From assembly GCA_051294375.1 (NCBI GenBank), contig CM119268.1, positions 740,324-793,969 of the forward strand: a DNA stretch of 53,646 nt, in the 5' to 3' direction. Under the pieces are notes generated by a model. It saw only the letters and a program-made list of their open reading frames with translations. It ran no database searches and was not told the DNA's origin. The translations under genes and the position numbers were made by a program. Source of the DNA: Paraspadella gotoi. Lineage: Eukaryota > Animalia > Chaetognatha. Positions 408 to 53,646 of this stretch are shown here, piece by piece (the stretch's first letter is position 1; every line of letters begins with the position of its first letter).

Positions 408-660
408 TGTAGATAAGGCGCTTAGTGGGCTGAAGATGACTATCCGTAACTACTAAAATTCCCTCTAGCACCCATAGAACGGGTCCTGGGCTTGGAACCA
501 GGCTTCAGGGTTTGCCAAGCCCCCAAGGGGGCTTTCGGCCGTCCTCACTCTTCCCGCAGGGTAGGTACCGGCTTGGGATTGAACACAGTACCTCGTGGTC
601 ATGAGCTGATGCCTTTACTCAATGAGCCACCGGGGTGAACCTAAGCAATGCCCGACTACA
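408..660 (-). mobile_element. SINE family 1 (tRNA-like head with CAT anticodon loop, twister-like core)
   Basis: Minus strand reads CCCCGGTGGCTCATTGAGT (A box) ..AGCTCATGACC.. GTTCAATCCC (B box), then GAGGACGGCCG..CCTGGTTCCAAGCCCAGG..CTTCAGCCCACTAAGCGCCTTATCTAC; homologous copies at about 20955, 21835, 32470, 40836 and 53039. Confidence 0.75.
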
Positions 661-746: not shown

Positions 747-3700
747 CTTGATGACAGAAGCCAAGACAAGCAGTCAAAAACGCGACGCCGACGAATGAAT
801 CAACAACAACAATGAAAAGAACCGAAACGACGAAAATAAGGATGGAATCGACGATGAAAATTACGAGTTTTCGAGAAACTAGGGGGAAAAATANNNNNNN
901 NNNNNNNNNNNNNNNNNNNNNNNNNNNNNNNNNNNNNNNNNNNNNNNNNNNNNNNNNNNNNNNNNNNNNNNNNNNNNNNNNNNNNNNNNNNNNNNNNNNN
1001 NNNNNNNNNNNNNNNNNNNNNNNNNNNNNNNNNNNNNNNNNNNNNNNNNNNNNNNNNNNNNNNNNNNNNNNNNNNNNNNNNNNNNNNNNNNNNNNNNNNN
1101 NNNNNNNNNNNNNNNNNNNNNNNNNNNNNNNNNNNNNNNNNNNNNNNNNNNNNNNNNNNNNNNNNNNNNNNNNNNNNNNNNNNNNNNNNNNNNNNNNNNN
1201 NNNNNNNNNNNNNNNNNNNNNNNNNNNNNNNNNNNNNNNNNNNNNNNNNNNNNNNNNNNNNNNNNNNNNNNNNNNNNNNNNNNNNNNNNNNNNNNNNNNN
1301 NNNNNNNNNNNNNNNNNNNNNNNNNNNNNNNNNNNNNNNNNNNNNNNNNNNNNNNNNNNNNNNNNNNNNNNGATTGTGGGCGTATTGTCGTTCGGGGCCT
1401 TTGCTGTATTGGGGCCCCTCATCGGTGAAACGGCGGGCTTATGAGGGATCTTATGAACATACGGACAAACCAGTAGAAAATGAAACCCGAGTCAGTAGGT
1501 CAACGGACTCCACTCTCTTACAAGATGAGAACATAGCCAGGGCCCTTAATGTACATTTCAAAATCAAAGAAATATGTTATCCGTGAAATGCTTAAGATTT
1601 ATAGTACAATCACTATTTGATGTTTTAAGTAACTACTTTATTTTTTATCTGAGCGTTAAGTGAGTTAGAAAACAGGCTATTGAAGAGACAGTGATAACAG
1701 TTGTGTGTTAGTGAAAACAGAAACCGTTTCAATATAAAGCAGTTCCCGTGAGTTTGGATCAGAGCTGGTAACAGCCATGTTACAGGCGGCGTTAAAAGCG
1801 CCCCAATCTCCTCTACTGCTAGGCCAACCACGGGCATAGAACCCCAGACCTTTGAGGTAGGGCCGCCGATCCCGTAACAGGACAAAACCGTCGAGATGCG
1901 ACTTTGGACGGATGATCCATCAATTGTCTCGTTGAAGGCGTCGACGCGACACTCGGCGAAGGATTCCGAGAGCATCGGAGGAAGAAAGACTCTCATCCCG
2001 AACATGCCGACGCTCTGAGAGAATCCGTAGAGGATAAAGACGAGAAAGAGTCGATGCTTGAAGAGACGTTGGAATATGGCGAAGGAAGTCGTTTGGGTCG
2101 GTGGATCATTTTCCGGAGTCAGAGGATCGGAAGGAAGGCTGTCGTCTTCACCTTCGTCTGTGGGATCAAGTTTCTCTGCATCGACTGAGTTCCGATTGGC
2201 TGAATTACGATCAGCTAATCTGCCATTGGCTGATTTCCCATCGGTTGTTTCGCGATCAGCTAATCTTTTATTGGCTAATTTTTCATTGGCTGATTTCTGA
2301 TCAGCTGATTTTTTGTTCGACGTCTTCCCATTAGCTGATTCCTGCTGGGCTATTTTCTGATAAGCGGATTTGTCAGCAGCTGATTTGACATCAGCTGATT
2401 TCCCATCAGCTGATTTCCTATCAGCTGATTTCTCATCAGCTGATTTCCCATCAGCTGATTTCCCATCAGCTGATTCCTCATTGTCTTCGAGTTCAAACAT
2501 AAAGATGGTAAAGAATAAAATCAAAAACCACAAACAACCGAGGAGCATCAACGAAGATTTCCAGCCCGACCTGGTCATAAAAAAAACTTAGCATTACATT
2601 TTAAACTTTCTTTCCTTTCTCTCCTACTCTTACTATACAACTTTGCAATACTGTTTTTTTTGGTCAAAATAAATCTTATGGTGCACTAAAATCCACCAAC
2701 CGTTCTTCAGCGGCCATTGGTGCCGGAGGCAAGTCATTCGCTCCCAACCCTAAGGTTCTGGGGTTCTGCTCTGGTGGTCGCCTCATAGAGGGACCGGCGC
2801 GCTTAACCCGCCTGTAACATGGTGCTTACAGCCTGTCGAATAGCTCAGGGACTGCTTATATTGAACGGGTCTGTCATTAACTCATAACAATAATTACTGT
2901 CTCTTCTATCTGTTTTATGTTCACTTATTTAAATTTGTATAGTTATGGAAAATTGTGAAATAAATTAAACTAAGTATAAAACTTGAAAAATAACTAGTTG
3001 TAAAAGCCAATTCCTGTCAAAGCGTTTGTTATGCATATTGCATTATTGCATAATCAATTAATCATTAGAACAGCTACAAATGTTATCAGTTAATGAATTT
3101 AAGTCGATACGGCGCAACAACTAATAGCCGTTCTTTGTTAATATACAGTAATATAACTTCAAAAACTTTTAAAATCTAACCTGGTGATAACCAAGTCGGT
3201 TAAAAGCGGAAGAACCATCATTCCCAACGGAGCCCCGCAATTGGAGATTCCATAAGCAAGGGCGCGATACCTGATCGTTGCCCGGCCTGTGAAGTGAGTT
3301 GAAAAATAACTAGTTGTAAAAGCCAATTCCTGCAAAGCGTTTGTTATGCATATTGCATTATTGCATAATCAATTAATCATTAGAACAGCTACAAATGTTA
3401 TCAGTTAATGAATTTAAATCGATACGGCGCAACAACTAATAGCCGTTCTTTGTTAATATACAGTAATATAACTTCAAAAACTTTTAAATCTAACCTGGTG
3501 ATAACAAGTCGGTTAAAAGCGGAAAGAACCATCATTCCCACGGAGCCCCGCAATTGGAGATTCCATAAGCAAGGGCGCGATACCTGATCGTTGCCCGGCC
3601 TGTGAAGTGAGTCAAAGTTTAGTTTCTCGTGAAACAAGGATTCTAAAATCGAAAAGTTCTCGTATGGTGGACTAAAAATCCACCAACCGTTCATCAGCGG

Positions 3701-6700
3701 CCATTGGTGCCAGAGGCAAGTCATTCGCCTCCCAACCAAAGGTCCGGGGTTCTTGCCCGGTGGTCGCCTAGCAGTAAGAGGGACGGAGCGCTTAACCCGC
3801 CTGTAACATGGTGTTACAGCCTGATCCGAAGCTCATTGACTGCTTATATTGAACGGTTCTGCACTAACACATAACAATAATTACTGTTCTCTTCATCGGG
3901 TTCGAACTCTGGTCTGAATGGTCATTGCAATAGAATGATAGGCCACAGTGGTCACTTATTGAAATGGGCACGCCAAGTGAGGGGAGACAAATTGAAGGTT
4001 AGTTTACATTGTGTTTATATTAAGTTTGAATAAATTATACTTAGGTTATATAATTTACTTATAAGTTTAGTTTCTTATTTGTCCTAATTCAACATTATAT
4101 ATTTTTGTAGTTTTTAACTTGCACACTTGCTTACTTGCTACTTGCTTGCATCATCATCTGTCATTTGGTCTTCAACTTTCTATCTAAGATTGGAAATTGT
4201 TTTTTTCTCAAAATGTTGTTCCTATTTATGCTTTATTACAACATGGTTCTAGGATTATAAGGTTAGAGTTAAGTTTTTTTACATGTTAGAATGTTTGTTT
4301 TCCAAATATTTATTTGAGAGCAGTTGAGCACGAATTTGAATTCAATAATTATTTATGGCACTCAAGAAGAATAAAGATGAAACTTAGTTTTGTTTCATTT
4401 GCGATAATATTGGATTATCTAGAGCTCGCGTTAAGAAGCGCTTCACCTTAAACCTAGGACTAAGCTCTGACGAAAAAAGCCAGAGGTTTTTTTAATATAT
4501 TCTTTTACCGGCCAATGTAGAATGATGGCAATATTGCTATTGTTAAGTTTCAAAAAAATCCGATCATAAATATAGAAAATATTAACCAAAATCTTCGGAA
4601 AATCCACCCCTTCTTTGGAAGATTTTCGCCATAGAAGAATTTTCCCGAATCTGACTCCCGGTTGAAAACTCTTAGAATTCCGAACGTAAGCTCCTCTTTT
4701 ACTTTTACTTTAAATAAAAATTTCACCAAAATGGACTAATTCACTTTACCATGATCGTTTTCATATTAAAATAACTAAATAAAATGTAAAGAAAAATTTT
4801 GAGAGCCCTTCAGACATATGGCTATCGAATTCCTGAATTCGAAGTTTATTGTAAAATCACAACATGCCTTAAATGCGTTTATATTGTAATGAAGTGAGAA
4901 ATCCCTTTATTTATATAGAAAAATTGAGATGAAAATTTTTTCCTGAGCAGACCAGTCCATTTAAATTTGATGGTTTGATATCAAAATGATGGTTAATCAT
5001 AAAGAGAAAAAAAATGCGAGCCCTTCAGATGCAAACAGGATCTGAATCGAGTCTTTTTACATCAATTGGGGATGTGCATCGTTTCTAAACTATTTAGTAT
5101 TTTTAAATGAATTTGGTACCGATCGATAGGAAATTCAAAAATATCTACATACAAAATTTCATCAAAATCGGATAATCCGTTCAAAAGTTATGGCAAAAAA
5201 ACGATCTCGAAAATCGCGCTTCGAATCGATCAACTTTCGCTTAAAATCGAACTCGTTTTGATCCAATAAGGATTGAACTTCGCGTAGTACTAAGCTTTAA
5301 ATCGGTAATCGCGATTAGGCGCAATCCGGCCTCGTAAGAGTAATTGAAGAAGCGAAACAAGGAAAAGAGGTAATCATTAGAAAGGTAAATGATAAAAATA
5401 ATAAAATTTAACAGAATATGTAAGATAAATCATAAGAGAACAAACAAGTTATCAATGCAAAGTATAGCGAGTGATATCGCCAGCAAAATTACTATTTAAC
5501 TAACGTCAATTTAAATTTAATATCGTTAATTCAAGATCAGGAATTAAAGATTGAGAATTCACTACGTCACTTCACGATTAATTTTTCATTTTTGAATCAT
5601 TTTCAATTTGACGAAAATTGATTTGACTATGATAACATAAAACTATTATTAAAAGAAATGATTGATTTACAAATTGATGAAATGAATAAAATTAATTAAA
5701 CTAATAACGAGACGATGGTTTAATATTTAAATTTGTCATATTCTGAATCCTTATTTTATTATAAATAAGTTTGAGCAAACAATATCGGATTTGCCTACAA
5801 TAATTTAGTGCCAATCAGCTAAAAAGTATGCAGTGAAAAAAGTATCAAGTTGAAAAAAGTATGCAAGTTGAAAAAAGTATGCAAGTTGAAAAAAGTATGC
5901 AGTTGAAAAAAGTATGCAAGTTGAAAAAAATTATTCAAGAGTATGCAATTTAAAAAAGTATGCAATTTGAAGAAAGTATGCAAAAGTATGCCAATTTGAA
6001 AAAAATGATGCAAAGTATGCAATTTTAATAAAATGTATGCAAAAGTATGCAATTTGAAAAAAATGTATGCAAAATATGCAATTTTAAAAAGTATGCAAAA
6101 GTATGCAATTTCAAAAATGTATGCAAAAGTATGCAATTTAAAAAATTTATGCAAAAGAATGCAATTTAAATAAGTATGCAAAAATATCATAAATAGGAAA
6201 AGTATGCATACTTGAAAAGTATGCATACTTTGAAAAAGTATGCATACTTTGAAAAAAGTATGCCTACTTTTTTGAAGTATGCATACTTTTTTCAAAGTAT
6301 GATACTTTGAAAAATTATGCATATTTTAAAAAAAGTATGCATACTTCAAAAAAGTATGCATACTTGAAAAAAGTATGCCATACTTTGAAAAAAGTATGCA
6401 TATTTTAAAAAAAAGTATGCATACTTTTTTGAAAGTATGCATACTTTTCAAAGTTAGCATACTTTTTTCAAAGTATGCATACTTTTTTTCAAATTGCAAC
6501 TTTTTTTAAATATCCTACTTTTTTCAATCACGTCACGTCAATGAATGACTAGCATCGCATCAATGAATACAATCATCGCATCAATATGACTATCATCGCA
6601 TCAATGAATGATTATCATCCGATCAATGAAGGACTTCATCGCATCAATGAATGATTATCATTGCATCAATGAATGACTATCATCGCATCATCATTTGGTT

Positions 6701-9700
6701 ATTCATCGCATCCATCCTTCGGTTATCATCGCATCAATATTGGTTATCATCGCATCAATATTTGGTTATCATCGCATCAATATTTGGTTATCATCAAAAG
6801 TAGGCTCGATCCTATTGCTTTTAAGATTAATAATTAATGTCTCTTCAAGAGATAAGATAAAGAGACTAACAAGGGACAAAACGACGCCGAGAACGCCAAT
6901 ATCACGGGCGTGAAATTCAAAACATTTTATACAGACCGCGTTCTAAAACGTAAAAATACGGTGAAAGCCATGTTGAAATATGGTATTTATCTGGCCCGGA
7001 TCACGCATGATCAATGCTTATTTTTAATTGATGTCCTCATTGGATAAACTACGTCAACCATTTCAATACAGACCGGAACGCGCTTTAAAAAAGCTTTTAG
7101 CGTGCAAAAACTTGATATCCTTTCTATTTGCTCTAAATTTAATAAGCTCTCTAAATTTACCCCCGCGCTCTACCTGAAACGATGTAAAAACAATACAGTT
7201 TCTTTCGAGTCTTAGAACAAAAAAAAATTGAAGGCTTGACATGCAGTTTTCACCTAAAAACCAGTTCATTTGATCTTTATCAAGCATTCAAATTTTATCT
7301 AGTAGAGAAGACAATAAGCTATCCGAAACCGTACTGATTTGTATGATTTGTTCTATTTTACAAAAGATCAAGCAGGTTTTTGGGAAGGGAAAAAAACGGT
7401 CTGACCAGTTCATTTAAATACCATTTCTTGGGCATGAATAAATGGAATTTCGATCGCGCTCTACCTCCGTTGGCTTCCCAAGACGCCAAGCTTTCGAAAT
7501 CTACCCATATTGATATAATTTATATGGGCCTTGACTATGCAGTTTTGAATAGAGTGAAATATAAAGGAATCTTGATCGGAACTTCGATTCGAACGATGCG
7601 CAAGCCCTACGATCAATTTTTATCGGGAACTTTTCCCAGGACCGTTTATATTGTTTGTAGTCAGATTTGAACGAAAATCTCCATTGAAAANNNNNNNNNN
7701 NNNNNNNNNNNNNNNCAAAGTTTAGTTTCTTCGTGAAACAAGGATTCTCTAAAATCGAAAAGTTCTCGTATGGTGGACTAAAAATCCACCAACCGTTCAT
7801 CAGCGGCATTGGTGCCAGAGGCAAGTCATTCGCCTCCCAACCAAAGGTCCGGGGGTTCTTGCCCGTGGTCGCCTAGCAGTAAGAGGGACGGAGCGCTTAA
7901 CCCGCCTGTAACATGGTGTTACAGCCTGATCCGAAGCTCATTACTGCTTATATTGAACGGTTCTGCACTAACACATAACAATAATTACTGTCTCTTCATC
8001 GGGTTCGAACTCTGGTCTGAATGGGTCATTGCAATAAGAATGATAGGCCACAGTGGTCACTTATTGAAATGGGCACGCCAAGTGAGGGGAGACAAATTGA
8101 AGGTTAGTTTACATTGTGTTTATATTAAGTTTGAATAAATTATACTTAGGTTATATAATTTACTTATAAGTTTAGTTTCTTATTAGTCCTAATTCAACAT
8201 TATATATTTTTGTAGTTTTTAACTTGCACACTTGCTTACTTGCTACTTGCTTGCATCATCATCTGTCATTTGGTCTTCAACTTTCTATCTAAGATTGGAA
8301 ATTGTTTTTTTCTCAAAATGTTGTTCCTATTTATGCTTTATTACAACATGGTTTTAGGATTATTAGGTTAGAGTTAAGTTTTTTTACATGTTAGAACTGT
8401 TTGTTTTCCAAATATTTATTTGAGAGCAGTTGAGCACGAATTTGAATTCAATAATTATTTATGGCACTCAAGAAGAATAAAGATGAAACTTAGTTTTGTT
8501 TCATTTGCGATAATATTGGATTATCTAGAGCTCGCGTTAAGAAGCGCTTCACCTTAAACCTAGGACTAAGCTCTGACGAAAAAAGCCAGAGGTTTTTTTA
8601 ATATATTCTTTTACCGGGCCAATGTAGAATGATGGCAATATTGCTATTGTTAAGTTTCAAAAAAATCCGATCATAAATATAGAAAATATTAACCAAAATC
8701 TTCGGAAAATCCACCCCTTCTTTGGAAGATTTTCGCCATAGAAGAATTTTCCCGAATCTGACTCCCGGTTGAAAACTCTTAGAATTCCGAACGTAAGCTC
8801 CTCTTTTACTTTTACTTTAAATAAAAATTTCACCAAAATGGACTAATTCACTTTACCATGATCGTTTTCATATTAAAATAACTAAATAAAATGTAAAGAA
8901 AAATTTGAGAGCCCTTCAGACATATGGCTATCGAATTCCTGAATTCGAAGTTTATTGTAAAATCACAACATGCCTTAAATGCGTTTATATTGTAATGAAG
9001 TGAGAAATCCCTTTATTTTATATAGAAAAATTGAGATGAAAATTTTTTCCTGAGCAGACCAGTCCATTTAAATTTGATGGTTTGATATCAAAATGATGGT
9101 TAATCATAAAGAGAAAAAAAATGCGAGCCCTTCAGATGCAACAGGATCTGAATCGAGTCTTTTTACATCAATTGGGGATGTGCATCGTTTCTAAACTATT
9201 TAGTATTTTTAAATGAATTTGTACCGATCGATAGGAAATTCAAAATATTATCTACATACAAAATTTCATCAAAATGGATAATCCGTTCAAAAGTTATGGC
9301 AAAAAAACGATCTCGAAAATCGCGCTTCGAATCGATCAACTTTCGCTTAAAATCGAACTCGTTTTGATCCAATAAGGATTGAACTTCGCGTAGTACTAAG
9401 CTTTAAATCGGTAATCGCGATTAGGCGCAATCCGGCCTCGTAAAGAAGTAATTGAAAGAGCGAAACAAGGAAAAGAGGTAATCATTAGAAAGGTAAATGA
9501 TAAAAATAATAAAATTATAACAGAATATGTAAGATAAATCATAAGAGAACAAACAGTTATCAAATGCCAGAAGTGTTAGCGAAGTGGATATCGATGCTCT
9601 CTTCTTTAAAATCTTCCTCGATCTCTAAAACGACGTCGACTCCTATTAAACCTAAACACTAAGCTTTAACCCTAACCATAAACCTTAAGCATTAGCCTAA

Positions 9701-12700
9701 AACCTAAAACCTAAAAACTGAATTCTGAATTTAAAATGAGATTAGGTATTTTGGGCATAATAAGGTAAAATAGTCTAAGAATTCCCTAATGCACGCAGAA
9801 GCTTTAAGTATGATAATTAAAAAATATTATATACCAATCAAATTCATGATGAAGAGCATAATACAACCAGCGGCGCAAAAAGGAATGATGCCAAGAAAGA
9901 CGATTAGGCTCGCTGCTGATGAAGCCATCCAAGATGCGCAAATGTAACTGGAAAAAAAATTATTAATATCATTTAAGGAAAAACTCACCAGTCTCTTTGG
10001 AAGCGTGTGCTCGAATCCCACCGCTGCCACCACATTTAAGGAAAAACTCATGGATTTCTATCGTTGAAATCAGGAAGATGATTTTATTCTGAGAATAAAG
10101 GTGACGGTGAGACACACGCAGGAGTCTTGTTCAATGCTACTGAATCTAAGACAAGCTATGTCTATTTATAACTAAGGAAGAGGATCGGCGACGTGGGTAA
10201 AATTTACAGTTCCAATGATACTGCAAGCTGATTGGTCGATTCCGGTTCCATGCTTTACCAATCAGGATTCAGCGAGATCGCCCGAGTCTCCGATCCGATT
10301 TGCTTTTGGTGCTATACTCTGCGATTATATATAAATTTGTTTAAATTTTAATAAATTAATTTGATAATTAAGCTGTATTTGTTATTTTCGTCTAATTTTA
10401 TAATGTTTTTTTTTTGCTAGACTTAGTCTAGTTTTTGTTGTTGATGATGATTGTACTGAATCAACCTCGTTGTATTCTAATAAAATCGCATATATATAAA
10501 TTATTAATATCATTTTACTTCTTATCAACATATATTTTAATCATTCATTGAAATTTTAGCTATTCTTTGTCCCTTCCTCATGCTTTGTCCCCTCCTCCTT
10601 CTTTGTTCTCCTCCTCATTCTTTGTCCCCTACTCATTTGAGGTATAGTCAGAGCAGTTATTTGACCACTTTTCAGGCAAAAATTCGCTGCGACTGATTTA
10701 GGTGGTCAAAAAGTCGAATTTGATTCATTTTCAGTGGAATGCGCGGAGGAGTAGGAAATCATTAAATGCTCTAACTTTTTGATTGAAGTAGAAGATAGAA
10801 GTATGAGCAAATATTACCAATGATTTAAAATTGTCCCCTTCCTCAATCTTTTTCCATTCCTCATTCATTGTCCCCTCTTCATTCTTTGTCCCCTCCTCAT
10901 TCCTCCTCCTCCTCCTCCCCCTTCCTTCTCGTTCACCTCTCACCCTTTCCCTCTCACCCGGTCGCGAGAACGATTCCCGCCAAAGTGAGCATGATCTGTC
11001 CAGAAATCCTTTTGAGAATCACAGCGTGAAGAGGAGAGAGAAAGTTAAATCCATAAGCGAGGCTTTGGACCCAAACGAGACTTGATCTCGAGGCTGAAAA
11101 GTCACGGAGCCAAATCTCAAAAAACGAGCCTAAAGAGGAAAGAAAACAGAAGAGCATGAGTAAAAAATCTTTATGAAATTGGTAAAACCAAAATAAAAAT
11201 TATCCATTCATTTAATAAATGAGCTATCTTGCCCCTGACTTTTGACAGGCTTTGGTGGTTAAAGGCCTCCATCACTCTTACAAGATAATGACATAGCAGG
11301 TCCCTGCAAGCTTTCAATCAAGACTCTTTCAAAGTCTCGTTTATTCACTCCAAGAGTACCTGGCTTCATTATCAATGAAGTAGTATAACATTTAAAAGAA
11401 TATTTCAATTTAATGTAATGTAATGTAATTTATTACATTTATTTCTCATAAAGCTTGCTGCGTCCANNNNNNNNNNNNNNNNNNNNNNNNNNNNNNNNNN
11501 NNNNNNNNNNNNNNNNNNNNNNNNNNNNNNNNNNNNNNNNNNNNNNNNNNNNNNNNNNNNNNNNNNNNNNNNNNNNNNNNNNNNNNNNNNNNNNNNNNNN
11601 NNNNNNNNNNNNNNNNNNNNNNNNNNNNNNNNNNNNNNNNNNNNNNNNNNNNNNNNNNNNNNNNNNNNNNNNNNNNNNNNNNNNNNNNNNNNNNNNNNNN
11701 NNNNNNNNNNNNNNNNNNNNNNNNNNNTTATATCATGTCAGAACATCGAATTATGATAAATTATTTAGGCAAAAACGATGATGTCCGTCCGTAAACGTTT
11801 GTAAACGTTAAAATATTTTGTTAAAGATTTGGCTACGAATTAGTGTATAGTGAATAGGTATAATAAGGTTAAGTATTTGGTGAAAGTTATTTAAGTTAAA
11901 TTTAAATTCATAGTTTAGGAACACAAATGGGTAGCTCTCGGAAAATAGTGCCAGATAATTACATTCACATTCGACTTACCCAGCGAGTGAGTGATGCCCA
12001 AAAGAAGGAACATGGAGACGAACCCGCCCACGACGATGGGAACTGACCAGATTGAATCTTTGGCGAAATTGGCGCGAGGAAAGAGACGCGCCAACAGATG
12101 GCGTGATAGGGAAGGCATGACGTAGAGAAGATGGCGTGGCTTCATAAAGATAAAAAATACTCACGCGCGAGCAAAAAAGAATCACGCCTGAAAACCTCAA
12201 TCAGCAGATTTGACCGGAGAATTTGCTGCAGTTATCACCGGTGAAGAAGGTTGAGGAGAACGTTTATCCGAATCCTAGGCTTTGAATCCAAACGAGATTT
12301 GATTTTATGCGAAGTCGAAAATTCATTCATCCAAATCTTCGAAAAAATGATCCTTGGAGGAAGAAAAAGGATTTGGCGGGAAAATTTAATAGATTCTAGA
12401 ATAATTGACACAATTGAGTCCGTTGGGAGTCGGAGCAAGTCGTGTCGCCTTATGTGAAATCGAAAGATCTTGAAGCTCAAGCCACTGAGTAGATTGGTCT
12501 TTGCTGAAATAGCATTGGGGACAATCTGCTCGCTTCTACTCGCTGACTTTTCTTTTCATAATTTTCCATCTCCTTTACTCTTTTTCCATTTCATCCTATT
12601 ATTTGACTGATCAATCTCTACAACATACACTACCTTATATAACATTTATACTAAATTGATGAAAAGACCGCTATAACATACTTACTTACATACATACATA

Positions 12701-21500: not shown

Positions 21501-24500
21501 GAATCCTAATTATGTATGCACTTAAAACTAACTCATCTGAAAGAGAACAGACTGCATGTCCTCCCGGTTTGACAACATCCAGGAAAGAATCCCATCCATC
21601 GATAGGAACGTGACCAGGGGCAAACGCTCCCGCCATCATGACCAAGTCGTAATGATCCTTCAAAAAAAAATCCCTTTTATGCTTAATTATGTAATGGGTA
21701 TAATCAATATCAAAATTATCCATTCTTTCAATAAAAACATCTAATGTGAGCTACTTAGGGCTTCCATCTCTTTTTACAAAAAAATTGTTGGACCCTGTGT
21801 GATTGTGGAAAAGGAGCTACGTGGGTTGAAGAGCAATGGAACGGGTCCTGTTCTTGGAACCAGGCTTAAGGGTTTTCCACACCCCCAAGACAGGTTACAG
21901 CCGTCCTCCCAAGGTATGCACTATTTGGGATCAATCAAGGTACCTAATGGTCATAAGTCAATGGGCCGGGATGTGAGGCATCTCCCGACAGTTGGCGATC
22001 AGGGCTTTGGACCTGCAGTGACTACCCCATATCACTGGAGTGTTTAAACTGTTTATGCCGACACCATCACAATTAACCAGCATGACCGAGAGGGGATTGA
22101 ACCTCGCACTCGCGGTTCGTAAGCGAGTACTAAGCTGTCCAAGCTAATGAGACGAGCTGTGATAAATCGGGGAATTAAATATTGTATTCCACACTAGCTA
22201 ATCATAGAGATAATACAAAATTAACAATGTCCAATTCCATACTTTCTCAACGGGCAACTTTGCTCCGCCTCCGATAAAACTGACAAAAGTTTTATCATAG
22301 ATTTTTTTCTCTTGGGCGATTTTGAGCATTTCTTCTGAAGCATCAAGGGCGTCAACAGAAATAGAAGGATTTAGTCCTGCTTCGAGGAGACTCTCAGTGA
22401 GAAACCCAGTTCCTAGAGAAAAATTGGGGTCATAAATAAAAAGAGGATATGAAACCTACAAAAAATTCAAATGAGTTACCAGTGGGTTGGGTAATAATGA
22501 TATAAAATGCGTGACAGTTTCTATGATTATGTTACCTTGTTAAAATGGGTTAGAATAATAAATGAAATATTAACCAATAAATTTGTTTTTACATTTATTT
22601 TCTGCTTCAATGAAACAATCAATTAAAAAAAAATGATGCTTAATGATTACCTGCGGCCATATCAATTATTTTTCCCTCATTACGCTTTAACTATTTCCAT
22701 TATAAGAGTTCTACAGATTTCGGAGTGTGACCTTATTATATCATGCAAATCTTTTTCATAATCTTGAGCCCAAGAACTGGTCAGCGCGCGAGCGTTTCTT
22801 CTTTTGATTTTCAAGAGTCGACACTCGTTTATAATTAGTCGACTTGTGCATTGTTTTACGCTGCTATCACTTTACAATGACGATTACCAGTTACTTAAAA
22901 GAAAGTCTTTATTACTATTACACTATTTTTTTGACGAATAACAACTAGAACAAAAAGTGGTGAAAAATTTATTGGGAGTCTTTCTGCACGACCCAGACTA
23001 TAAGATCGTTTGTCGTGCAAGAGAATTTTTCAAACCACTGGGTGGTAACTCGTCCTCCTCTCTTAATTGGCTCCTTTTCTTTGACACACTTTCTGGGCAA
23101 TGAATTTTTGCCGAATCTGGAAATATTCGAGCGTCGTTTCGCAACAACCTGTGAATGAGTCACATTCTCATGAAAAAAGAAACAGAACTTAACAGAAAGG
23201 AAAGCAAATAGAAAACAACAAATTAAAAAACACTAAATAGATCTAAACAAAATGAAAAATAACACTAAAAGTGCAACAAACAAAATTTTTAAAAAGCCTC
23301 TAACAACTAAAAAACCAAAGAAAAAAAATACAAAGAAACAAAACTAAAAAAAACTAAATAAAATACAAACCAAAAACAAAAAACAAAAGCAAAAAAATAA
23401 ACCAAAAAATAACCAAAACAAAATTTTTCCCCACTCGAATTTAAGATCAAAAAGAAATTCACTTTTTGGTGATGGAGCAGACTGCATGTCCTCCGCTGGT
23501 TTGACCGCGTCCAGAACAAAGTCCCAACGTCGAGAGGCACGTGACCCGGGACAAAAGCACCCAGACATCAGTCGCTCAAATCGTAGGACTCCTACACATT
23601 TAAATTTTAATCATGAATTCAGAAGCACGCGATCCAATAGTTGGCTCTGTTTAAAAAAAAAACTATGTTCTTTTCCCGCGGAATTTAAATTTATTTATTC
23701 TTTTGTTAGCTGCAAAGTGTAGAGCCGGAGTGATTAAAACCTAAACCTTATGACGATCAAGTGTTCTATTGCATGATGGCATTAACTTGTTGCTTTGGGC
23801 TATGGAACGCTGCATGATGCTCCATGTCATTGGCCGCGTTAAACCTAGGACGGTTCTCCAAATAATATGCATAGGAAGGAACTGTTAGAGAACTCGATGA
23901 AAATAAAACTAGATTTCCTAAAGATATCGTTGTAATAAGCCCGAAGCTAATATTACTAAATTGTTTAATTTTGATTTCATTAAGGATTCTATAGATTTAT
24001 TGGGTTATTATACAATTTTTAAATTGTTTTGAAAAATTAAACTATAGATTCAGCATGGATGATGAGTTACGTTTTGTTTTTACCTTCGCAATATTGTGTG
24101 TACTAACTATTAACTTCAGCGCGATAAACCTTAACTTTATTTTTAAGCTCAATATTAACGCTAATATTAAACCTCAAAACCATTCGAAGATAACAAAGTT
24201 TTATTTGATACAGAACAAAGCGATTTTTTTTTAGTAGAATTATAATTGTAACAATGTACAATGTAATGTACATACTATACACTACTTTTTAACCGAATCT
24301 ACATCAGCGCTAAAGTAAGTCCGCAAATTTTATTAAACAAATTTTATTTATAACAAATAAATCATTTCAAATACTACGATAACTGCTTACTTTCTCAAAC
24401 GGCAATTCGCTCGCGCCGCCGATGAAAGAGACAAAAGTTCTCTCGTAAATTTTTTTTCTTTGGCGATTCTCAACATTTCTTTGGATGCGTCTACGGCGTG

Positions 24501-29580: not shown

Positions 29581-30338
29581 GAGTTGGGATTTTTGTATTT
29601 TTTTTAATATTTATAAGTCAGAGAGTGAGAAAATGAGAGAGAAAGAGATGAGGAAATGTTAGTTTAAAACGTTTTATTTAATGATCGTTGTTCGGGTCCT
29701 GAAAGAGCCGGTCGGACTCTGCACCCGAGCACCTCCTCCTCATCATTCCTATTCCTCCTCCTCATCATTCCTCCTCCTCCTCTTCCCCCTCCTTTCCCGT
29801 CGATTAAGGGCCGAAGGCAAAGGTTTAACATTAGGTTCTTCACTCACTCTTCCTCTCTCCTTTCCCTTTACCAGCCCTCTCCCGAGATTACCTTTTTTGG
29901 CCTTTTCCGTTACTTTTTTAGTCGCCCGTCAGTTAGAGTGGCGCCCAATGTGGGGCTCGAACCCACGACCCCAGGATTAAGAGTCCTGTGCTCTTAAAAC
30001 TGTGTACTTAAAACTGTATACTTAAATCCGGGCAGCTCTGAATTTAATTCAATTAGTTCATTTAATTTAATAAAGTACCAAAATAGAATTGAGAAAATAA
30101 CAGTGCGAGGCTGAGGAGTATTTATCGAGGAGGACAAAGGGATGTTATCGAGGACAAAGGAATATTATCGAGGAGGACTAAGGGATATTATCGAGAATAC
30201 ATCAAACGTTTTAAATGAATACATTTTTGAAATCACCAATTTCACCAATCTCCTATTTGGTTTATTTTAAAGTTGATTTGAATGACCCTTTTTCCTAATG
30301 AAAGTCAAGAAAGAAAAAGAGAGGGAAATGCTGAAGAA

Positions 30339-30392
<54 letters not shown>

Positions 30393-32120
30393 CTCAACTC
30401 TCACTTACCCTCCCCTTAACCAAGGCGTCGTGGCGGTGGCGGCGGCGGAGAAACTTTCCTTCGCGGACAGAATCGATTCTTATTCTCGACTCATCATGAA
30501 TCCATCGCTGATTCTGGTTTGGAGTTTTACTGACCCGATTCACCCGCAGGTCTGGGGATCATGGGGGATTCGGGGGATCAGAGGGATTTGGGGATTCGGG
30601 GGATCAGAGGTGTTTGGGGATTCGGGGTATGAGGGGGATTTTTAGTTGCCAACTCGACCGTTTCAACTTCCCCAGTTGCTCCTCGAAGCCCCAGACGACA
30701 TCTTCTGTTTTCAATTTAATCCATCTGATCCGAATATCGTCGCCGGCGGCTGCATGAACGGGCAAGTCGTGGTTTGGGACATCGGTCCTTATGCGGACAG
30801 GCTCAAGTCCAGCAAGACTAGTAAGGTAAGAGAGAAGGAAAGAGAAAGAGAGAGAGAGAGAGAGAATTTTAATTTTAATATCTTCTCTCTCTTCTCTCTC
30901 TCTCTCTCTCTTTATTCCCCCCCCCCCCCAGAGCGGCGGCAGCCAAGGTGGCGGCGGCTCAAGCGGCGGCGCCAGCGGCAGCGGCGGCGGGTTCGAAGCC
31001 GACGCGGCAGAGCTGGAATGTCCTATGATTCGCTACGCAGCTGTGTCGGCGATCGAACAAAGTCATAAATCCTGCATCACTGATTTGTTGTGGCTGCCTG
31101 ACCATTTCGAGGTGAAGGGGTGGTTTTTTTTCGTTGTCCTCCTCCTGGTTGTCATTGTCTTTGTCTTTGTCATCATCGTTTTCGTTGTCCTCCTCCTGGT
31201 TGTCATTGTCATTGTCTTTGTCATCATCGTCGTCGTTGTCCTCCTCCTGGTTGTCATTGTCTTTGTCATCATCCTCGTCCTTGTCGTTCTCCTCTTTGTC
31301 ATCTTTGTCGCCCTCCTTGTTGTCATCATCGTCGTCGTTGTCGTCTTCATCGTCGTCGTCGTCTTCATCATCGTCGTCGTCATCATAGTCTTCTCCTTCG
31401 TCGTCTTCGTCCTCATCTTCCCTTCCTTTCTCTTCTCACCCTCAGGTCTCCCGCCTGGGAGTTCCGCTAGAGAACAAGAACCTCCTGTGCAGTCAGATCC
31501 TGACCTGCGCCTCTGATCAGGTGGTCCTGTTCTGGGACATCAGGCCGCCAGTGGAAAAGGCCAAGGGAGGCGGCGGTGGAGGGTCCATGGAAAGAGGCGG
31601 GACTACCGGTAATTTTGCGACCGCTACGCCTTCTTACAAAATTAATATACATAGGCGTTCAGGATAATAAATAATAATTTATTTATATGTCTTAATAAAT
31701 CATTTTCTGTCTTAATAAATCATTTTTCTGTCTAAATAAATCATTTTCTGTCTAAATAAATCAATTTCTGTCTTAATAAATCATTTTTCCTCCTGATTTT
31801 TTTTTTTTATTTTATATATTTATTTCATTAGCTAACATGGCCTCCCCCCCCCTAATTTATCTCCCACCTCCTCCTCTTTTAAAAAGTGGGAGGCACGATT
31901 ACCACCTCGTCCACCTCCATCACCACCTCTTCCGGTGGAGGCCACACCGGCTCATCCGCCCCAGATGCTTCCACGGGCGATTCCAATCCTGAAGGCTCGC
32001 CCGTCGTCGTCAACAAATTCAAACATCTTGATCTGACGTGGAAACCGTTGCTTAAGGTCACCCTGCCATGCTCCGACCCTGGCGGGGACTTTGCGCCCAC
32101 TAAATTTAGGTGAGAGAGAG

Positions 32121-32159
<39 letters not shown>

Positions 32160-35100
32160 AACATTGTCCTTTTGTCTTCAGCATCCAAGAAACGCAGGGC
32201 GATCGATCATCCTTAGAAGGAGCCAAGCATCACGAAGGGGAAGACGACGAGCTTGGTGATTCCTCCTACGTCAGCGGAAGAGTCAGCGCCTCAAACAAGC
32301 AAAGGATGCTTACCAAAGTGAGTTTAATACAAGGAATTATTTTCTTTAGATAAGCATACCAAACTGAGTTTAACCCATGCCTCGAAAAAGAAAAAAAAAA
32401 GTTTTCCTTAACAGAGAATGGTCACAACAGCATTGTCGCAATAAATCTCGATTAAAATGTCGCAGTATATTTGTAGTCGGGCATTGCAATAAGGTCACCC
32501 ACCTATAAGCAAGATACCTTCAGTCGTTTCCCGGTGGCTCATTGAGTAATACCATCAGCTCATGACCATCAGGTACAGGGATCGACCCCCAATGGTTCCT
32601 ACATCTAGTCTGCAGGAAGCGTGAGGACGGCCGTAAACCGCCTTGGGGGCCTGGAAAACCCTTAAGCCTAGTTCGAAGCCCGGAACCCGTTCTCTGGCTA
32701 CTTGAAGGGGTTAAAGAATTTGCGGATAGCACTCTTCAGCCCACCTCGCGCCTTATCTACATATTAACACTGCCACACCTCTAGCTTCATTCATCCCAAG
32801 TGTCACATTCCAGCCACAAACCTTACGATTTCCCTCTGCGTTGCCAAAGGGAGACCGTCCTAAGGTAACCGCGCCAGTGACAGGTGGCGTTACTTAGGGT
32901 AGGAAGCCCTTAAAGCTAATAGTAAGATGACCCGTCCCAATGGACAACACAGGCAAGACGACTGTTACCATCAAAACTGAATCAACTTAAAAGTTTCAAT
33001 TAATTAATTAATTAAGGTTTCAACGAAGTTTTATCTCGGAACTGAAGACGGCCATTTGGTCTACGTCGATTGGAAACCAGTCAAGGATAATGATACCGGG
33101 AAGATCTCCACTCCCAGGGCGACATTTTGGAATTCCTTCAGGTAAGAGATGTAGGCGAAAATCTTGCTTAAAAAAAAATTCAACATTTTTCTAATAGAGA
33201 TTCCGTTCGAATCTGACTGCCCCAACTTTACAAACGAGCCTGCAAGAAATTCCGGTAGAAAACAGTTGTAAAAACACCGCGATTCCGACAGCTTTGCATC
33301 TCAAGAGCTCGTTCCCTTTTTTCTTGTGGCATTTGATGAAATTTTACTATCAAACAAGCCAGGGGAAATGGACTACTCGTCTCCGGAGGATTTTCATACC
33401 TCATTTTTACTATAGAAATGAAAGGGAAATTTCACTTTTTTAAAAATTACAAACGAGATTAGGGTATGTTAGCATTATAAATGGTACTTTGAATGATGAG
33501 ATTCCAAAAGCCTTGTATCCCTAGAGCTCGTTCTATTTTTCTTTTTATTATTGACAAATTTTTTCATATTAAACCAACATGGTAAAGTGAATTGGTCCAG
33601 TTTTCATCGCGAAATTTTTATTTAAAAAGAAATTAAAAGGAAGGTTAGAGAAAAAAACTTATTTTTCCTAATATCTTTTGAAGGAACAAAGATAAAGGGA
33701 TGGCAATAGTACCAAAATGAAGCCATAATCATAGGCACATACAAGATACAATTTTAGAATTATTTTGGCTGAAATTCTTTACAGGGTGAGTGTCAAACTA
33801 AGTCAAAATTATAATTAATTTTAAAACTAATGACACCCCATAGAAATAAATAAAAATTAAATTCTTTTTAATGATTCTGAAAGAAAAAAAGCTAAATTGT
33901 ACTCTAGTAAAACTTAAAAGTTTTTGGATAAAGAAAATGTAAATTTTTTGTCACTTAATAATTGCTTGTCTGATTTTACAAGCATGCTTACAAAATTCTA
34001 CAAAATATTATTCACCCCATCGCAGTCTAAGTATTTATCTTTCTTTTCCACCAGCAAAAAGTAAACATTATCTTATTTTAGAGAACAGGGACGTTTACTG
34101 AAAGGAGCCAGAAGATGTTCAACTTCTTCACTTTAATGTCAGTTTTTAATAATAAAATAGGCCAATTTTTTTAATTACTCAACTTTCACAGCTTCACAAG
34201 ACATTAACACTTTCACAATATCCCAATGTTAATGTAATGTATTATATTTTTTTACCTAGAAATTATAAAAGAAATAGAAAGTTGTGGATTCCTTTCACTC
34301 AAAGGGAAAAAAAATTTACTAGCGGAATTATAAGTTTGTAAGAGGCAGTCAGAATCGGCGAAAATCTTATAAGGCAAACATGTTGAAAAAAAGGGGTGGA
34401 ATTTTGATGGGTTTCCTAAGATTTCTCCACAATGTAAGGTCCGATTAAAGCGAAACTTGAGATTTACAATATTCCCGTCATTCCACATCCATCGATATAA
34501 AAATATAAGAAAAAAGCCACTGGCTTCTTTTTCTATAGCGGCTTCCTATGAGATGGCACTAAATAGATCTCTACTCCGAGGGCGACATTTTGGAATGCCA
34601 TNNNNNNNNNNNNNNNNNNNNNNNNNNNNNNNNNNNNNNNNNNNNNNNNNNNNNNNNNNNNNNNNNNNNNNNNNNNNNNNNNNNNNNNNNNNNNNNNNNN
34701 NNNNNNNNNNNNNNNNNNNNNNNNNNNNNNNNNNNNNNNNNNNNNNNNNNNNNNNNNNNNNNNNNNNNNNNNNNNNNNNNNNNNNNNNNNNNNNNNNNNN
34801 NNNNNNNNNNNNNNNNNNNNNNNNNNNNNNNNNNNNNNNNNNNNNNNNNNNNNNNNNNNNNNNNNNNNNNNNNNNNNNNNNNNNNNNNNNNNNNNNNNNN
34901 NNNNNNNNNNNNNNNNNNNNNNNNNNNNNNNNNNNNNNNNNNNNNNCCATTCAGGTAATGAGATGGCACTGAATAGATCTCTACTCTGAGGGCGACATTT
35001 TGGAATGCCATTCAGCTAATGAGATGGCACTGAATAGATCTTCACTCCAGAAGACATTTTTATCCTCTCTCCCCTTTCCTCCCCTTCTCCTCATCCCCCT

Positions 35101-38738: not shown

Positions 38739-41700
38739 TCAGCATCCACAGGCGTTTAAGAAGTCGGGGTAATTCGGAAAGTAGACGAATCGCTCGTAAC
38801 CGTAGATCCAGAAAATATATTCGTGAACTCCGGTCCGATCGGCAACGAGGATTTCCGTTAGGGGGACAATGTCAACGCTTTGAGCCTGAGGTGGGAAAGA
38901 ATATTTAAATAATCTGTGCCGGTATGTTCACACCGACTCACATACAGCTGCATTCAGATATATATAAATAATATATCTCTCTCTCTGTGTCTCCTATCTC
39001 TCTCTCTTTCTCTCTCTCTCTCTCCCTCCCTTTCCATCCAACCTGATAGTGTAGCTTTTTCTTTGACTGCATCTTATAATGTTTAGCTATGAGTTCATAA
39101 CTCGCGTCGTACAAACGATAATCCTGAAAAAAAAAGATGTGGGTTTTTCCACCTGACCTCATGCTCACCGGACGTGACCCGTTAGACCTTCTTACCAAAT
39201 ACAGACATACTGACATACACTGACGTATTCAGATATTGGCAAATTGAACAAATACTGACATGAACTATACAATCGTGACCCGATTCTTACCGGCTTTGAA
39301 TGAATGACTAATTCTGACCCATTCAAAACTTGTTGGTTCGATTGGTTAGATTTGACCTGACCTGACATGATGCGACCTGAGCCCGATTTGACCTGACCTG
39401 ACGCGACCCCTCTCTCACCTGGCTCAGTTGCGACCTGAGCCCGATTTGACCCAACAACAATTTGACCATACCCGTTCTGACCAGACCCCCTCCCACGTTG
39501 ACATAAAAGCATAAAAGTAGTAGAGCAAATTTGTCCCAATCTGATCGTGTTCAATTGTTCATTGTTCAGAGCTGACCCCCCAGTCCCGTTTTTGCTTGGT
39601 CCCTCTCTGACCTCACTCCATCGTAAACCTGACCCCATTTCGTCGTGATCCCGTCAAGACCCGATCCCTCTCTAACCTGACCCCCTCCATTCCGACCCGA
39701 CCTGAATGGGGGCGACTCTCTCGAAGCATTCCTCGACGACCCTCTTCCCCTTTGCTCGGTCGAGCAGTCGGTCCGGCAACTGAGTTCGATTGTAAAGCCA
39801 AAAGGAGGAGAAGACTTGAAAGCGGACGAAAAGTTCCACCGAGGATTTGAGGCGTCTGAAGAGGGCGTTGGGGAAAGAGGGAGGGAGGAGAGGGAGGGGA
39901 GGGGAGAGAGGAGAGAGAGGGAGGGAGAGGGAGGGAGGGAAGGGAGAGGAGAGGAGGGAGAGAGAGGGAGGGAAGGAGAGAGAGGGAGGAAGGAGGGAAA
40001 GGAGGAAGAGAGAGAGGGAGGGAGGGAAGGGGAGAGAGGAGAAGGAGGAAGAGGGAAGGAAGGAGAGAGAGGAGGGAGGGAAGGGGAGAGAGGAGAGGAG
40101 GGAAGGAGAGAGAGAGAGGAAGGGGAGAGAGGGGAGGAGGGGAGAGGGAGGAAGGAAAGGGAGGGAAGGAGAGAGAGGAGGAAGAGAGGGAGGAGAGAGG
40201 GGAGGGAGGAGAGGGAGGGAAGAGAGGGGGAGGGAGGGAGAGAAGATGGAGGGGATGGGAGAGAGGAGAAGGGAGGAGGGAGGGAAGAGAGGGGGAGGGA
40301 GAATGTAAATAGTAAAAAATTGAAAGAAAGAATATTTTTTACATTGATTGTGTTGGAACACATACACTATCGTAACCCAACTAATTTCACCCCGGTTCAC
40401 GCCCCATTGGTGTCAATGCTAGTAAGCGGGACGGGTCGTCTCACCTGTTACGGCCATCTTCAGTCAGAATCTAACTTCATTGAACAAACGAGATGGTGTC
40501 CATGGTGGGGTCCGAGAGAGCTCATTAATTCATGGAATTGATAACTTTCCCTTGGAATAAGTATCCTCGTGAAATAATAGAACGGGAAATAAAAGGTAAA
40601 GCGTTTATTGAGAGAGAGGCATCCAGTAATCAGCAAAATGTAAGAACAACGGGAGAAAAGTGAAAAAGTGAAATCATGAAAATCAACGAGCCCCGTGAGG
40701 AAGAGGATGAGGAATTTTTTTAATTTGTATTGATTGTACCAAAAGTAAATTTAAAATTTCGTTGTTTTTGGATAAAGAGAGAAAAGAGACTCGTTAAAAC
40801 CATGCGCGCTACTTATTACTTATTATAACCTTGAGAATAAGGCGCAAAGCGGACTAAGAGTGCTATCCAAAAGTTCTTTAACTCCCTCTCGAATCCGTGC
40901 AACGGGTCTTGGTCTTGGAAACAGGCTTAAGGGATTTCCAAAGTGTTTAACGGCCGTCCCCACGCTTCGCGCAGGGTAGGTACCATCAGGGATGGATCTC
41001 GGATCCTGTTGGTCAGGAGCTGAGGGCTTCACTCAATGCGCCACCGGGCGAGGACCGAGGGAGCCAATCGTAATGGCGGGGTGAACTTACTGCAATGCCC
41101 GAACTACAACCTCATCACTTCTTATCGTCACCTGAATCCCTCGCATTCATTGCAGCGAACGGAACCGGTTCCATTGCACGCAAAGCATTTGCGGATCCCA
41201 ATGCCCCAACAGTAGTAGCAGGGGTTCTCGTAGTCGGTACCGCTGCCAAAGCAACTGGGCAAGGGGAGGGGTTGGCGATTGATTGATTGATTGAGTATAT
41301 GAATCGAATGAATCGATCCATCAACCATTCAATCAAAGAGTGTGAAATGAGATAAATGAATAAATAAATGAATGAAATATTGAATGAAAGAATAAATGAA
41401 TGAACAAACAAATGAATAAGTGAATGAATAAATATATATAAATATACGAATGAATACCCTAATGAATGAACAAATGAATGAATGCATAAAATAATGGAAC
41501 AACGAATGAATGAATTTATTGAATAAACAAATAAAAGTCAACGACCGATTTAAATTATGGGATAAAAGAATGAATGATTGACTGACGGACTGACTGATTG
41601 ATTGATTCAACGATGAATTAAATAAATCATTGCTTGTCACAACCATTCATTCAAATGATTGGTGAGCACATTCAAACTCCGCTCCTTACTGATCGCAATG

Positions 41701-53038: not shown

Positions 53039-53092
53039 AGGGGGTTATAGAAGTTACGGAAAGTCATCTTCAGCCCACTTAGCGCCTTATCC
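53039..53092 (+). mobile_element. SINE family 1 3' end after N gap
   Basis: AGTTACGGAAAGTCATCTTCAGCCCACTTAGCGCCTTATCC matches the tail of the 408-660 copy. Confidence 0.65.
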
Positions 53093-53646
53093 ACAGTATA
53101 TTTCCATTTTATTTTTCCTCCTATAAAAAGAACCGTGTCTAAAAAGCATGTTGAGATTGAATTTCACGAAATAATGGTTAAAATATAAAATTAAAGTCTT
53201 TTCTCAACTAATGAAGCCATTTTTGAAAAAATAATTGTAATATTTTCTTTACCATCATTGTTTAAAATTTTTTGGGGAAAATGCTTTAAAAGGGGCTTGA
53301 AAAGTATTTGGTCAATCAAGATGAAATTTAGCATACACTGTTAACCCATCTACCTTTATTGATTCATGCCATAACAAAAATTATTGATAACTATTTTGTG
53401 CATAATTTACTTTTTAAAAGAATCTGTACAGGATTTATCCTCCAGGATGTGACTACACTATTTTTAAAAAAAAATTATACTTAATTACAAAGAGCACCTA
53501 GTTGTGAATATAATTTGTTGGGAAATTTTTAGGTTACCTCTACAACTCCATTGATAATACCATCAATGCAGTGGATTGTACCTTATCCAGCAAGTTGTGG
53601 ATGCTATTGTGGACCCGATAGATGTAATAGAGGCTTGAAATTTTAA

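Follow-up and report, generated by a model that had tools for sequence, protein, structure and literature searches.

A structure-conserved twister module in at least three repeat families of the chaetognath Paraspadella gotoi, most likely within solo long terminal repeats

Results

Repeat families with tRNA-like heads in the window

We analysed a stretch of 53,646 nt from Paraspadella gotoi (contig CM119268.1, positions 740,324 to 793,969; hereafter the window), which consists of repeat-rich eukaryotic DNA. Exons of DNAI3/WDR63 occupy the + strand between about 16.8 and 37.1 kb (16786-37126), and the best named DNAI3 matches (75-78%) include hemichordate, tunicate, amphioxus and chytrid sequences. 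The element in question, with its core around 32611, is intronic and flanked by DNAI3 exon matches at 32018-32257 and 33008-33139. It belongs to the first of two repeat families (family 1 and family 2), copies of which were collected by a BLAST search of the window against itself. The initial annotation had described both families as short interspersed elements (SINEs) with a common ribozyme-derived, twister-like central domain. This observation mostly holds and is partly confirmed here: a structure-conserved twister module is present in at least three repeat families, most likely within solo long terminal repeats (LTRs). The core letters that had been quoted for both families and the different loops of their tRNA-like heads (CAT and CCC) were present as written, and the 3' tails of the two families indeed do not align. 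Both families are highly repeated in the species, where variant copies are very numerous; in run X1, 3335 contigs align to one family-1 copy and 8643 to one family-2 copy, numbers which do not represent copy number.

Termini and class of family 1

Each of the three complete family-1 copies runs from TGTAG to a terminal CA and has an exact 4-bp duplication on its flanks (TATT, TATA and AGGT), for which the empirical chance is 0.0087 per copy. Because of the TG...CA ends and the 4-bp duplications, family 1 likely consists of solo LTRs of a non-coding mini LTR retrotransposon of the Helenus type, as judged from sequence. Motif scans of both families placed an A box 32-66 nt inside the element (A-box motif in 5/5 copies, B-box motif in 3/5). 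ARAGORN called no tRNA gene in the window; the head at 32529..32600 is likely an internal promoter of RNA polymerase III (Pol III). Conserved sequence precedes the head in both families, and poly-A or repeat tails are absent from the examined copies of both. Beyond the family-1 3' end (window position 408), loose ends from three runs carry RTTTTAAC directly after the LTR end, which is either the start of an internal region or a target preference.

These features bear on the model of the initial annotation, in which both families are SINEs mobilised by a long interspersed element (LINE), with a ribozyme-derived central domain taken, for example, from the 5' untranslated region (UTR) of an RTE element. 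The layout of head, core and tail with unrelated heads and tails fits this model, twisters are known from the 5' end of the RTE element Perere-3 of Schistosoma (PMC8501958), and RTE 5' UTRs furnish SINE bodies (PMC5786205). The TG...CA ends and 4-bp duplications of 3/3 complete family-1 copies, the leader upstream of the head and the absence of a LINE-type tail speak against it. A Pol III transcript of a SINE would be expected to begin with the tRNA head and hence to lack the leader. If an active ribozyme followed the head, its cleavage would separate the promoter from the SINE RNA (Kojima 2018, PMC5786205). An LTR layout avoids both problems because the 3' LTR supplies the head again. In addition, the Perere-3 twisters are of type P1 and completed by target DNA, whereas those described here are of type P5 (PMC8501958). 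An RTE 5' UTR origin was set aside, as known RTE twisters are of type P1 and the elements here have LTR ends. We regard the SINE model as very improbable for the two families together, and for family 1 it is largely refuted.

Termini and class of family 2

The copy at 7769 is not independent of that at 3663 because it is the same insertion, carried by a direct duplication (3613-5479 and 7716-9593; 1.9 kb, 98% identity). The second copy of the duplication starts at an N gap, and the duplication is either a tandem duplication or an uncollapsed haplotype. A 3-bp target duplication fits both independent family-2 insertions, and an exact 4-bp duplication fits one of them and needs a terminal change. 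Together with the TATGG...TTCA ends, which lack TG, this would suit a family 2 that, unlike family 1, does not belong to the LTR elements and is instead a SINE-like or Sm-alpha-like retroposon with a tRNA head, or the monomer of a tandem array, that exchanged its twister module with LTR families. Schistosome SINE-like repeats that join a Pol III promoter and a hammerhead offer a precedent (PMC6765202). We consider such an origin improbable, if less so than the SINE model, in view of the conserved 34-nt leader before the tRNA head, the absence of a poly-A or repeat tail, and the lack of a head-to-tail joint among the 15 of 41 joints listed. Several published Helenus LTRs start with TAT or end in TCA (PMC10886601), and such ends, together with the leader, favour an LTR for family 2 as well. 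Family 2 also bears a hairpin at its 5' terminus (GGTGGA/TCCACC) and two distant complementary stretches, AACCGTTCA/TGAACGGTT (3672-3695, 3852-3862), that enclose the tRNA head and the twister.

A type-P5 twister fold is common to the families

Published twisters follow the order P1-UAA-P2-GC-P3-P4 (loop UCCCAAGC)-P2-GAGGG-P1, in which P denotes helices (PMC8501958, Table 1), and the type-P5 model of Rfam begins at the P2/GAGGG strand. In this type-P5 register family 1 reads GCGU GAGGA CGGCCG UAA ACC GC, followed by P3 and P4. The 32611 copy has GAGGA to GC at 32623-32641 and CCUAG UUCGAAGC CCGG at 32667-83, and P4 of the 408-660(-) copy is CCUGG UUCCAAGC CCAGG. Family 2 reads GAGG GACGG AGCGCU UAA CCC GC, P3 and P4 with loop UCCGAAGC (GACGG to CCUGA UCCGAAGC at 3782-3832). 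The first pseudoknot (T1) is fully complementary with different letters in each case: family 1 has GGA/UCC, family 2 has CGG/CCG, and a third family has UGG/CCA. The second pseudoknot (T2) is GC/GC in families 1 and 2, and the third family has GU/GC there. The sequences of P3, P4 and P5 vary between families, with their pairing kept. The G and A of the L1 strand, UAA, GC and AAGC agree, in P5 order, with published twisters (PMC8501958, Table 1). In P2 of families 1 and 2 a 3-nt 5' strand stands opposite a bulged 4-nt strand. The type-P5 twister fold is thus common to families 1 and 2, with compensatory changes in the pseudoknots, and the T1 variants, together with the reciprocal model matches given below, bear out the earlier proposal that structure was kept as sequence changed.

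The register in which the families had been compared needs correction. They had been aligned on a common GA-CGG, which is wrong because the CGG of family 1 is half of its palindrome and was counted twice; family-2 GACGG corresponds to family-1 GAGGA, the L1 strand. MAFFT also puts the L1 strand in the wrong register across families. The proposed closing helix CGGG/CCCG was found in the 408-660 copy, while the 32611 copy has CAGG/CCCG and family 2 has GCAGU/ACUGC.

Individual copies bear two or three fold defects each; in the 408-660 copy T1 and P4 are intact and T2 is defective. Contig depth of four of the 11 listed runs was compared with the copies. The fold is broken in the two compared copies at five positions (3836, 3837, 506, 529 and 535), at which the letter that fits the fold makes up 94-98% of the X1 contig depth, with similar values in the other three runs. 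These defects are private decay because the majority depth fits the fold. Separately, at positions 3784 and 3828, which form one T1 pair, about 10% of X1 depth carries a transition; each position is a CpG site, and the transitions possibly mark a compensatory subfamily.

The third family, overlooked in the initial annotation, has a tRNA-like head and a twister core at 21990..22160. At 21815-22190 (-) this element abuts the truncated family-1 copy, and it has a short internal duplication around UAA. A further, decayed core at 11226 lies inside a possible TG...CA element (11174-11390, -) with a TAAA duplication, which was chosen post hoc among many candidate ends. The features are collected in Table 1.

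In the 32611 copy T1 contains a G.G mismatch, P4 is broken and P5 has one mismatch. Because of these defects its activity is likely weakened and the copy a decayed relic, as far as its modelled fold allows us to judge. With a single T1 defect, mean cleavage was 0.65 instead of 0.76 in a large twister survey (PMC11662667), and since one such defect costs little cleavage, the 32611 copy may not be dead. The candidate core at 32849 lies in the same intron and on the same sense strand as the 32472 LTR, with TGTCGCAG just upstream. It was found by neither covariance model and its linker is imperfect. The family-1 LTR may have inserted into an older element holding this core.

Table 1. Repeat elements, tRNA-like heads and twister cores in the window
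Feature	Position	Strand	Details
Family-1 element, likely solo LTR (TGTAG...CTACA)	32472..32761	+	Termini, TATT/TATT duplication; sense strand of DNAI3/WDR63 intron
tRNA-like head of 32472 copy	32529..32600	+	A box 32535-46, CAT loop, B-box-like 32578-89; motif scan
Type-P5 twister fold of 32472 copy	32613..32689	+	P5 32613-16/32686-89, P2 32619-22/32637-39, L1 GAGGA 32623-27, palindrome 32628-33, UAA 32634-36, T2 GC 32640-41, P3 32642-49/32659-66, P4/L4 32667-83; predicted cut 32634^32635
Candidate twister-like core	32849..32912	+	Linker UCCUAAGG, T1 2/3; 90 bp downstream of 32472 LTR
Family-1 element, likely solo LTR	408..660	-	TATA duplication within TA run; twister core 480-556
Family-1 element, likely solo LTR (TGTAG...TCTCA)	40832..41108	-	AGGT duplication; P3 deleted in part
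Family-1 copy, 5'-truncated	21815..21957	-	Linker CGGCUG
Family-1 3' tail	53041..53095	+	Adjoins assembly gap
Family-2 element (TATGG...TTCA)	3663..3895	+	Leader of 34 nt, then tRNA-like head (CCC loop)
Twister core of 3663 copy	3771-3843	+	L1 GACGG 3782-86, linker 3787-92, L4 3825-32; predicted cut 3793^3794
Family-2 element, second copy	7769..7998	+	In 1.9-kb, 98%-identical duplication
Family-2 copy, L4 decayed	2677..2907	+	ATCT (4-bp) or TCT (3-bp) duplication, by end chosen
Family-2 copy, decayed	1681..1854	-	5'-rearranged
Third family, tRNA-like head and twister core	21990..22160	-	L1 GAUGG, linker UGUCGGCA, L4 UCCAAAGC; family-2 model 17.6 bits
Decayed twister core	11226..11287	-	L1 GAUGG, palindrome AGGCCU, P5 AUCUUG/CAAGAU, P3 deleted

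Elsewhere in the window a tRNA-like fragment (29950-30001, -; Rfam RF00005, 30 bits) has no twister seen behind it. An open reading frame at 1625-2587 (-) resembles a transporter exon, and repeated methyltransferase-exon-like pieces lie in a DNAI3 intron (25437-26177 (-) and 21545-24502), both labels having been given by eye. AT-rich, partly palindromic tandem repeats of 18-19 nt (5818-6522 and 15707-15844) gave spurious matches to microRNA families.

Cross-family detection depends on structure

Covariance models were built from four real copies per family and the window was searched unfiltered. The family-1 model gave its top non-training matches at the family-2 cores, with 26.3 and 24.0 bits (rough E-values of 1.8e-5 and 8.3e-5), followed by the new core at 11226-11287 (14.8 bits; 16 matches at E<=10). 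Reciprocally, the best non-training match of the family-2 model (21 matches) was the 408 copy with 25.6 bits (E 1.9e-5), after which came two antisense matches to its own training copies (22.3 and 18.6 bits), the third family and the 11226 core with 17.6 bits each and the 32472 copy with 17.1 bits. In a sequence-only family-2 model the 408 copy fell to 3.3 bits (E 3.9) and the remaining cross-family matches were lost. Since the reciprocal models matched where the sequence-only control failed, detection across the families needs structure. The initial annotation had proposed comparing the cross-family alignment with shuffled sequence; the families stood out with the structure models (E ~2e-5), and with plain alignment only one of four core pairs did so. 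None of six head, tail or leader pairs between families aligned better than shuffles.

A 21-feature descriptor of the fold was equalled by shuffles in 10/500 cases for the 32472 copy, 1/500 for the 408 copy, 1/500 for the 3663 copy and 3/500 for the 21800 copy; three of nine elements were too decayed for it. The values for 21990 and 32849 (1/500 each) are discounted because both were picked with the same descriptor. As a negative control, 31 motif-only matches from metagenome contigs (28 loci) and viral contigs (3 loci) were inspected, and not one combined a P4 of at least four pairs with a full T1. A tighter twister pattern had no match in either viral or prokaryote genome contigs.

Several null results would be in line with a twister resemblance that arose by chance from a permissive motif. 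A loose twister descriptor did not discriminate window-wide (17 matches in the window and 19.4 in shuffles, with up to 3 defects allowed). At gathering level Rfam found only a tRNA-like piece in the window; RF02684 scored the 408 copy below its threshold and did not match the 32611 and family-2 copies. Minimum free energy folds of five cores were mostly no better than those of shuffles (z +2.5, -0.6, -1.6, +0.8 and -2.2) and did not recover the pseudoknotted fold. Chance would have to account for reciprocal model matches at E ~2e-5, three different complementary T1 helices, the same place behind a tRNA head in three families, and pairings that occurred in 0/31 motif-only controls; we hold it to be extremely improbable.

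A number of results weigh against the interpretation of these repeats as LTRs with a twister fold. The nested structures of the covariance models were set by hand on a single twister template, the sequence-only control was made for family 2 only, the E-values are rough, and the antisense strands of family-2 training copies scored 22.3 and 18.6 bits. Plain alignment exceeded shuffles in the one family-1/family-2 core pair with z 3.8, the other three giving 1.7, 0.9 and 0.2. The window-wide count of the descriptor did not clearly exceed that of shuffles (5 versus 1.8+-1.6 in 60 shuffles, with a maximum of 7). The Rfam model Twister-P5 (RF02684) gave 20.2 bits for the 408 copy, in another register and below the gathering score of 37.6, and the 5' strand of P2 has 3 nt in families 1 and 2 compared with 4 in published examples. 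Polymorphism was not reduced in the cores (2/40 versus 16/213, p 0.75; 3/40 versus 13/167, p 1.0). As for the LTRs, no full-length element with two LTRs, primer binding site (PBS) or polypurine tract (PPT) was found in the 53,646-nt window, and family 2 has TA...CA ends with ambiguous duplications.

A self-complementary linker takes the place of P1

In all families the P1 hairpin is missing and a self-complementary linker of 6-8 nt is found instead, in four sequence variants. The P1 position holds CGGCCG in three family-1 copies and CGGCUG in one, AGCGCU in family 2, UGUCGGCA in the third family and AGGCCU in the 11226 core. The AGCGCU palindrome reported earlier for family 2 is self-complementary, as stated, and turned out to be a minority form: the first base of the linker (3787) is G in 99% of X1 contig depth, and this form is self-complementary through G.U end pairs. 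For the linkers CGGCCG, A/GGCGCU and UGUCGGCA a self-duplex of -8 to -11 kcal/mol and no hairpin were computed; over all computed linkers the range was -6 to -11 kcal/mol. Self-pairing of a random 6-mer has a p of about 0.05. A comparable case is that of hammerheads reduced to a single base pair with a palindromic tetraloop, whose cleavage is better in dimers (PMC7229834, PMC6765202).

The same LTR elements could also be read without dimeric cleavage. The ribozyme would then cut as a monomer, or the fold would be a signal for dimerisation or packaging, and the elements would be ordinary miniature retrotransposons with terminal repeats (TRIMs) of the Helenus/Cassandra type, with uncut, terminally redundant Pol III transcripts and no circle. 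In retroviruses 6-nt palindromes serve as dimer-initiation sites, which can be put forward for such a signal, as can the polymorphism of the cores, which is not reduced. According to the part of its description available to us, Helenus replicates in the manner of other LTR elements and without a ribozyme (PMC10886601). For a monomer, one base pair and a tetraloop would be enough: twister P1 is phylogenetically conserved yet dispensable in vitro (PMC5408937), and imperfections in P1 and P2 were tolerated by tested twisters, those in P1 being harmless to cleavage (PMC11662667). Hence cleavage could take place in the monomer, and dimerisation may not be required, which is a further point against the dimeric model. 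A packaging signal alone would not require the catalytic G and A, T1, T2 and the L4 motif, all of which have been kept in at least three divergent families, and a monomer loop does not need the palindrome found in every family. We therefore consider a monomeric ribozyme or a signal unlikely, though the strongest of the alternatives.

Discussion

We think it probable that families 1 and 2 both carry a twister fold behind a tRNA-like head, and that family 1 represents solo LTRs of non-coding mini LTR retrotransposons of the Helenus/TRIMp3 type that would spread as twister-based retrozymes. In the cycle that we propose, Pol III would initiate at the tRNA-like boxes in the 5' LTR of a full element and transcribe into the 3' LTR. 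The two LTR ribozymes of one transcript, or those of two RNAs, would pair through the palindrome, thereby complete P1, and cut at U^AA; such pairing is proposed because 6 nt are too few for the linker to fold into a stable P1 hairpin. The RNA from cut to cut would contain one permuted copy of everything, including the tRNA head. As it would lack a terminal repeat, circularisation would be needed. The unit RNA would be ligated to a circle, from which the reverse transcriptase and integrase of a helper Gypsy element would regenerate two LTRs. Solo LTRs would be by-products, formed by LTR-LTR recombination or from short cDNAs, and family 2 likely follows the same plan.

More tentatively, and with somewhat less than even confidence, we suggest that these families form a superfamily of animal LTR retrozymes that are driven by Pol III and built on a naturally dimeric twister, whose palindrome makes cleavage depend on pairing between LTRs or RNAs. 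Taken together with the hammerhead-bearing Helenus LTRs of Synergus, it would mean that TRIMs with tRNA promoters have repeatedly captured interchangeable ribozymes. Eukaryotic twister ribozymes have few assigned roles. If the model is correct, twisters would have a role in LTR retrotransposition, LTR retrozymes would extend to animals, and a natural candidate for a dimer-activated twister would be at hand. Solo copies would be nearly harmless in introns, and full elements would release a circle of unit RNA. Repeats with tRNA heads that are annotated as SINEs may then be solo LTRs with ribozymes below Rfam thresholds.

The Rfam type-P5 twister (RF02684) shares with the cores described here the order P2-L1 (GAnnn)-P1 position-UAA-P2-GC-P4, the loop nCCnAAGC and T1/T2. 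Its consensus has a P1 hairpin of 8 bp, whereas the present cores have a palindrome of 6-8 nt, a 3-nt P2 strand opposite a bulge, and a P3. The Perere-3 twisters (Liu et al. 2021, PMC8501958) resemble them in a weak P1, similar P3 stems and their occurrence in an animal retrotransposon. They are of type P1, lie at the 5' end of an autonomous LINE and trim a co-transcript, and no tRNA head, LTR or palindrome is described for them in the available part of that paper. The dimeric hammerheads of Penelope and of the axolotl retrozyme (PMC7229834, PMC6765202) likewise reduce a required helix to one base pair and a palindromic tetraloop; they belong to another ribozyme class and to non-LTR elements in tandem arrays.

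Plant LTR retrozymes (Cervera et al. 2016, PMC4918200) share with family 1 the ribozyme in the LTR, the 4-bp target-site duplication and the solo LTRs. A Gypsy helper and a circular RNA intermediate have been proposed for them; circles were shown there (PMC4918200) and are modelled here. They use a type III hammerhead, whereas Rfam scans of the window gave no hammerhead, and, according to the accessible text of PMC7761336, have no evident promoter of their own, whereas the present elements are animal and have a twister and a tRNA-like promoter. LTR retrozymes are mainly known from plants and with hammerheads, and metazoan retrozymes are described as lacking LTRs in the portions seen of PMC7761336 and 10.64898/2026.07.22.740005. 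Our literature search, which covered sources other than subscription papers, Repbase and Dfam, found no report of a twister residing in LTRs, TRIMs or SINEs, nor of a twister that dimerises naturally; the sections available of PMC12859917 and PMC4758252 added nothing further.

The closest counterparts are the Helenus TRIMs (TRIMp3; Kojima 2024, PMC10886601), which also have non-coding LTRs (theirs 100-320 bp) with a leader followed by A and B boxes. Like family 1 they have TG...CA ends, 4-bp target-site duplications in animals and frequent solo LTRs (PMC10886601). No counterpart of the PBS, PPT and internal region of Helenus was seen in the window. In the available text of the Helenus paper a ribozyme appears only in one reference and a twister nowhere, and no twister was found in animal Helenus LTRs by eye in part of the supplement and by a three-motif search (PMC10886601). 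In Helenus-2_SyJa-LTR and Helenus-2_SyUm-LTR from Synergus wasps, a hammerhead core was recognised by eye behind the tRNA head (PMC10886601, supplement). These hammerheads are not mentioned in the text of PMC10886601 available to us, and the two LTRs thus combine the layout described here with a different ribozyme.

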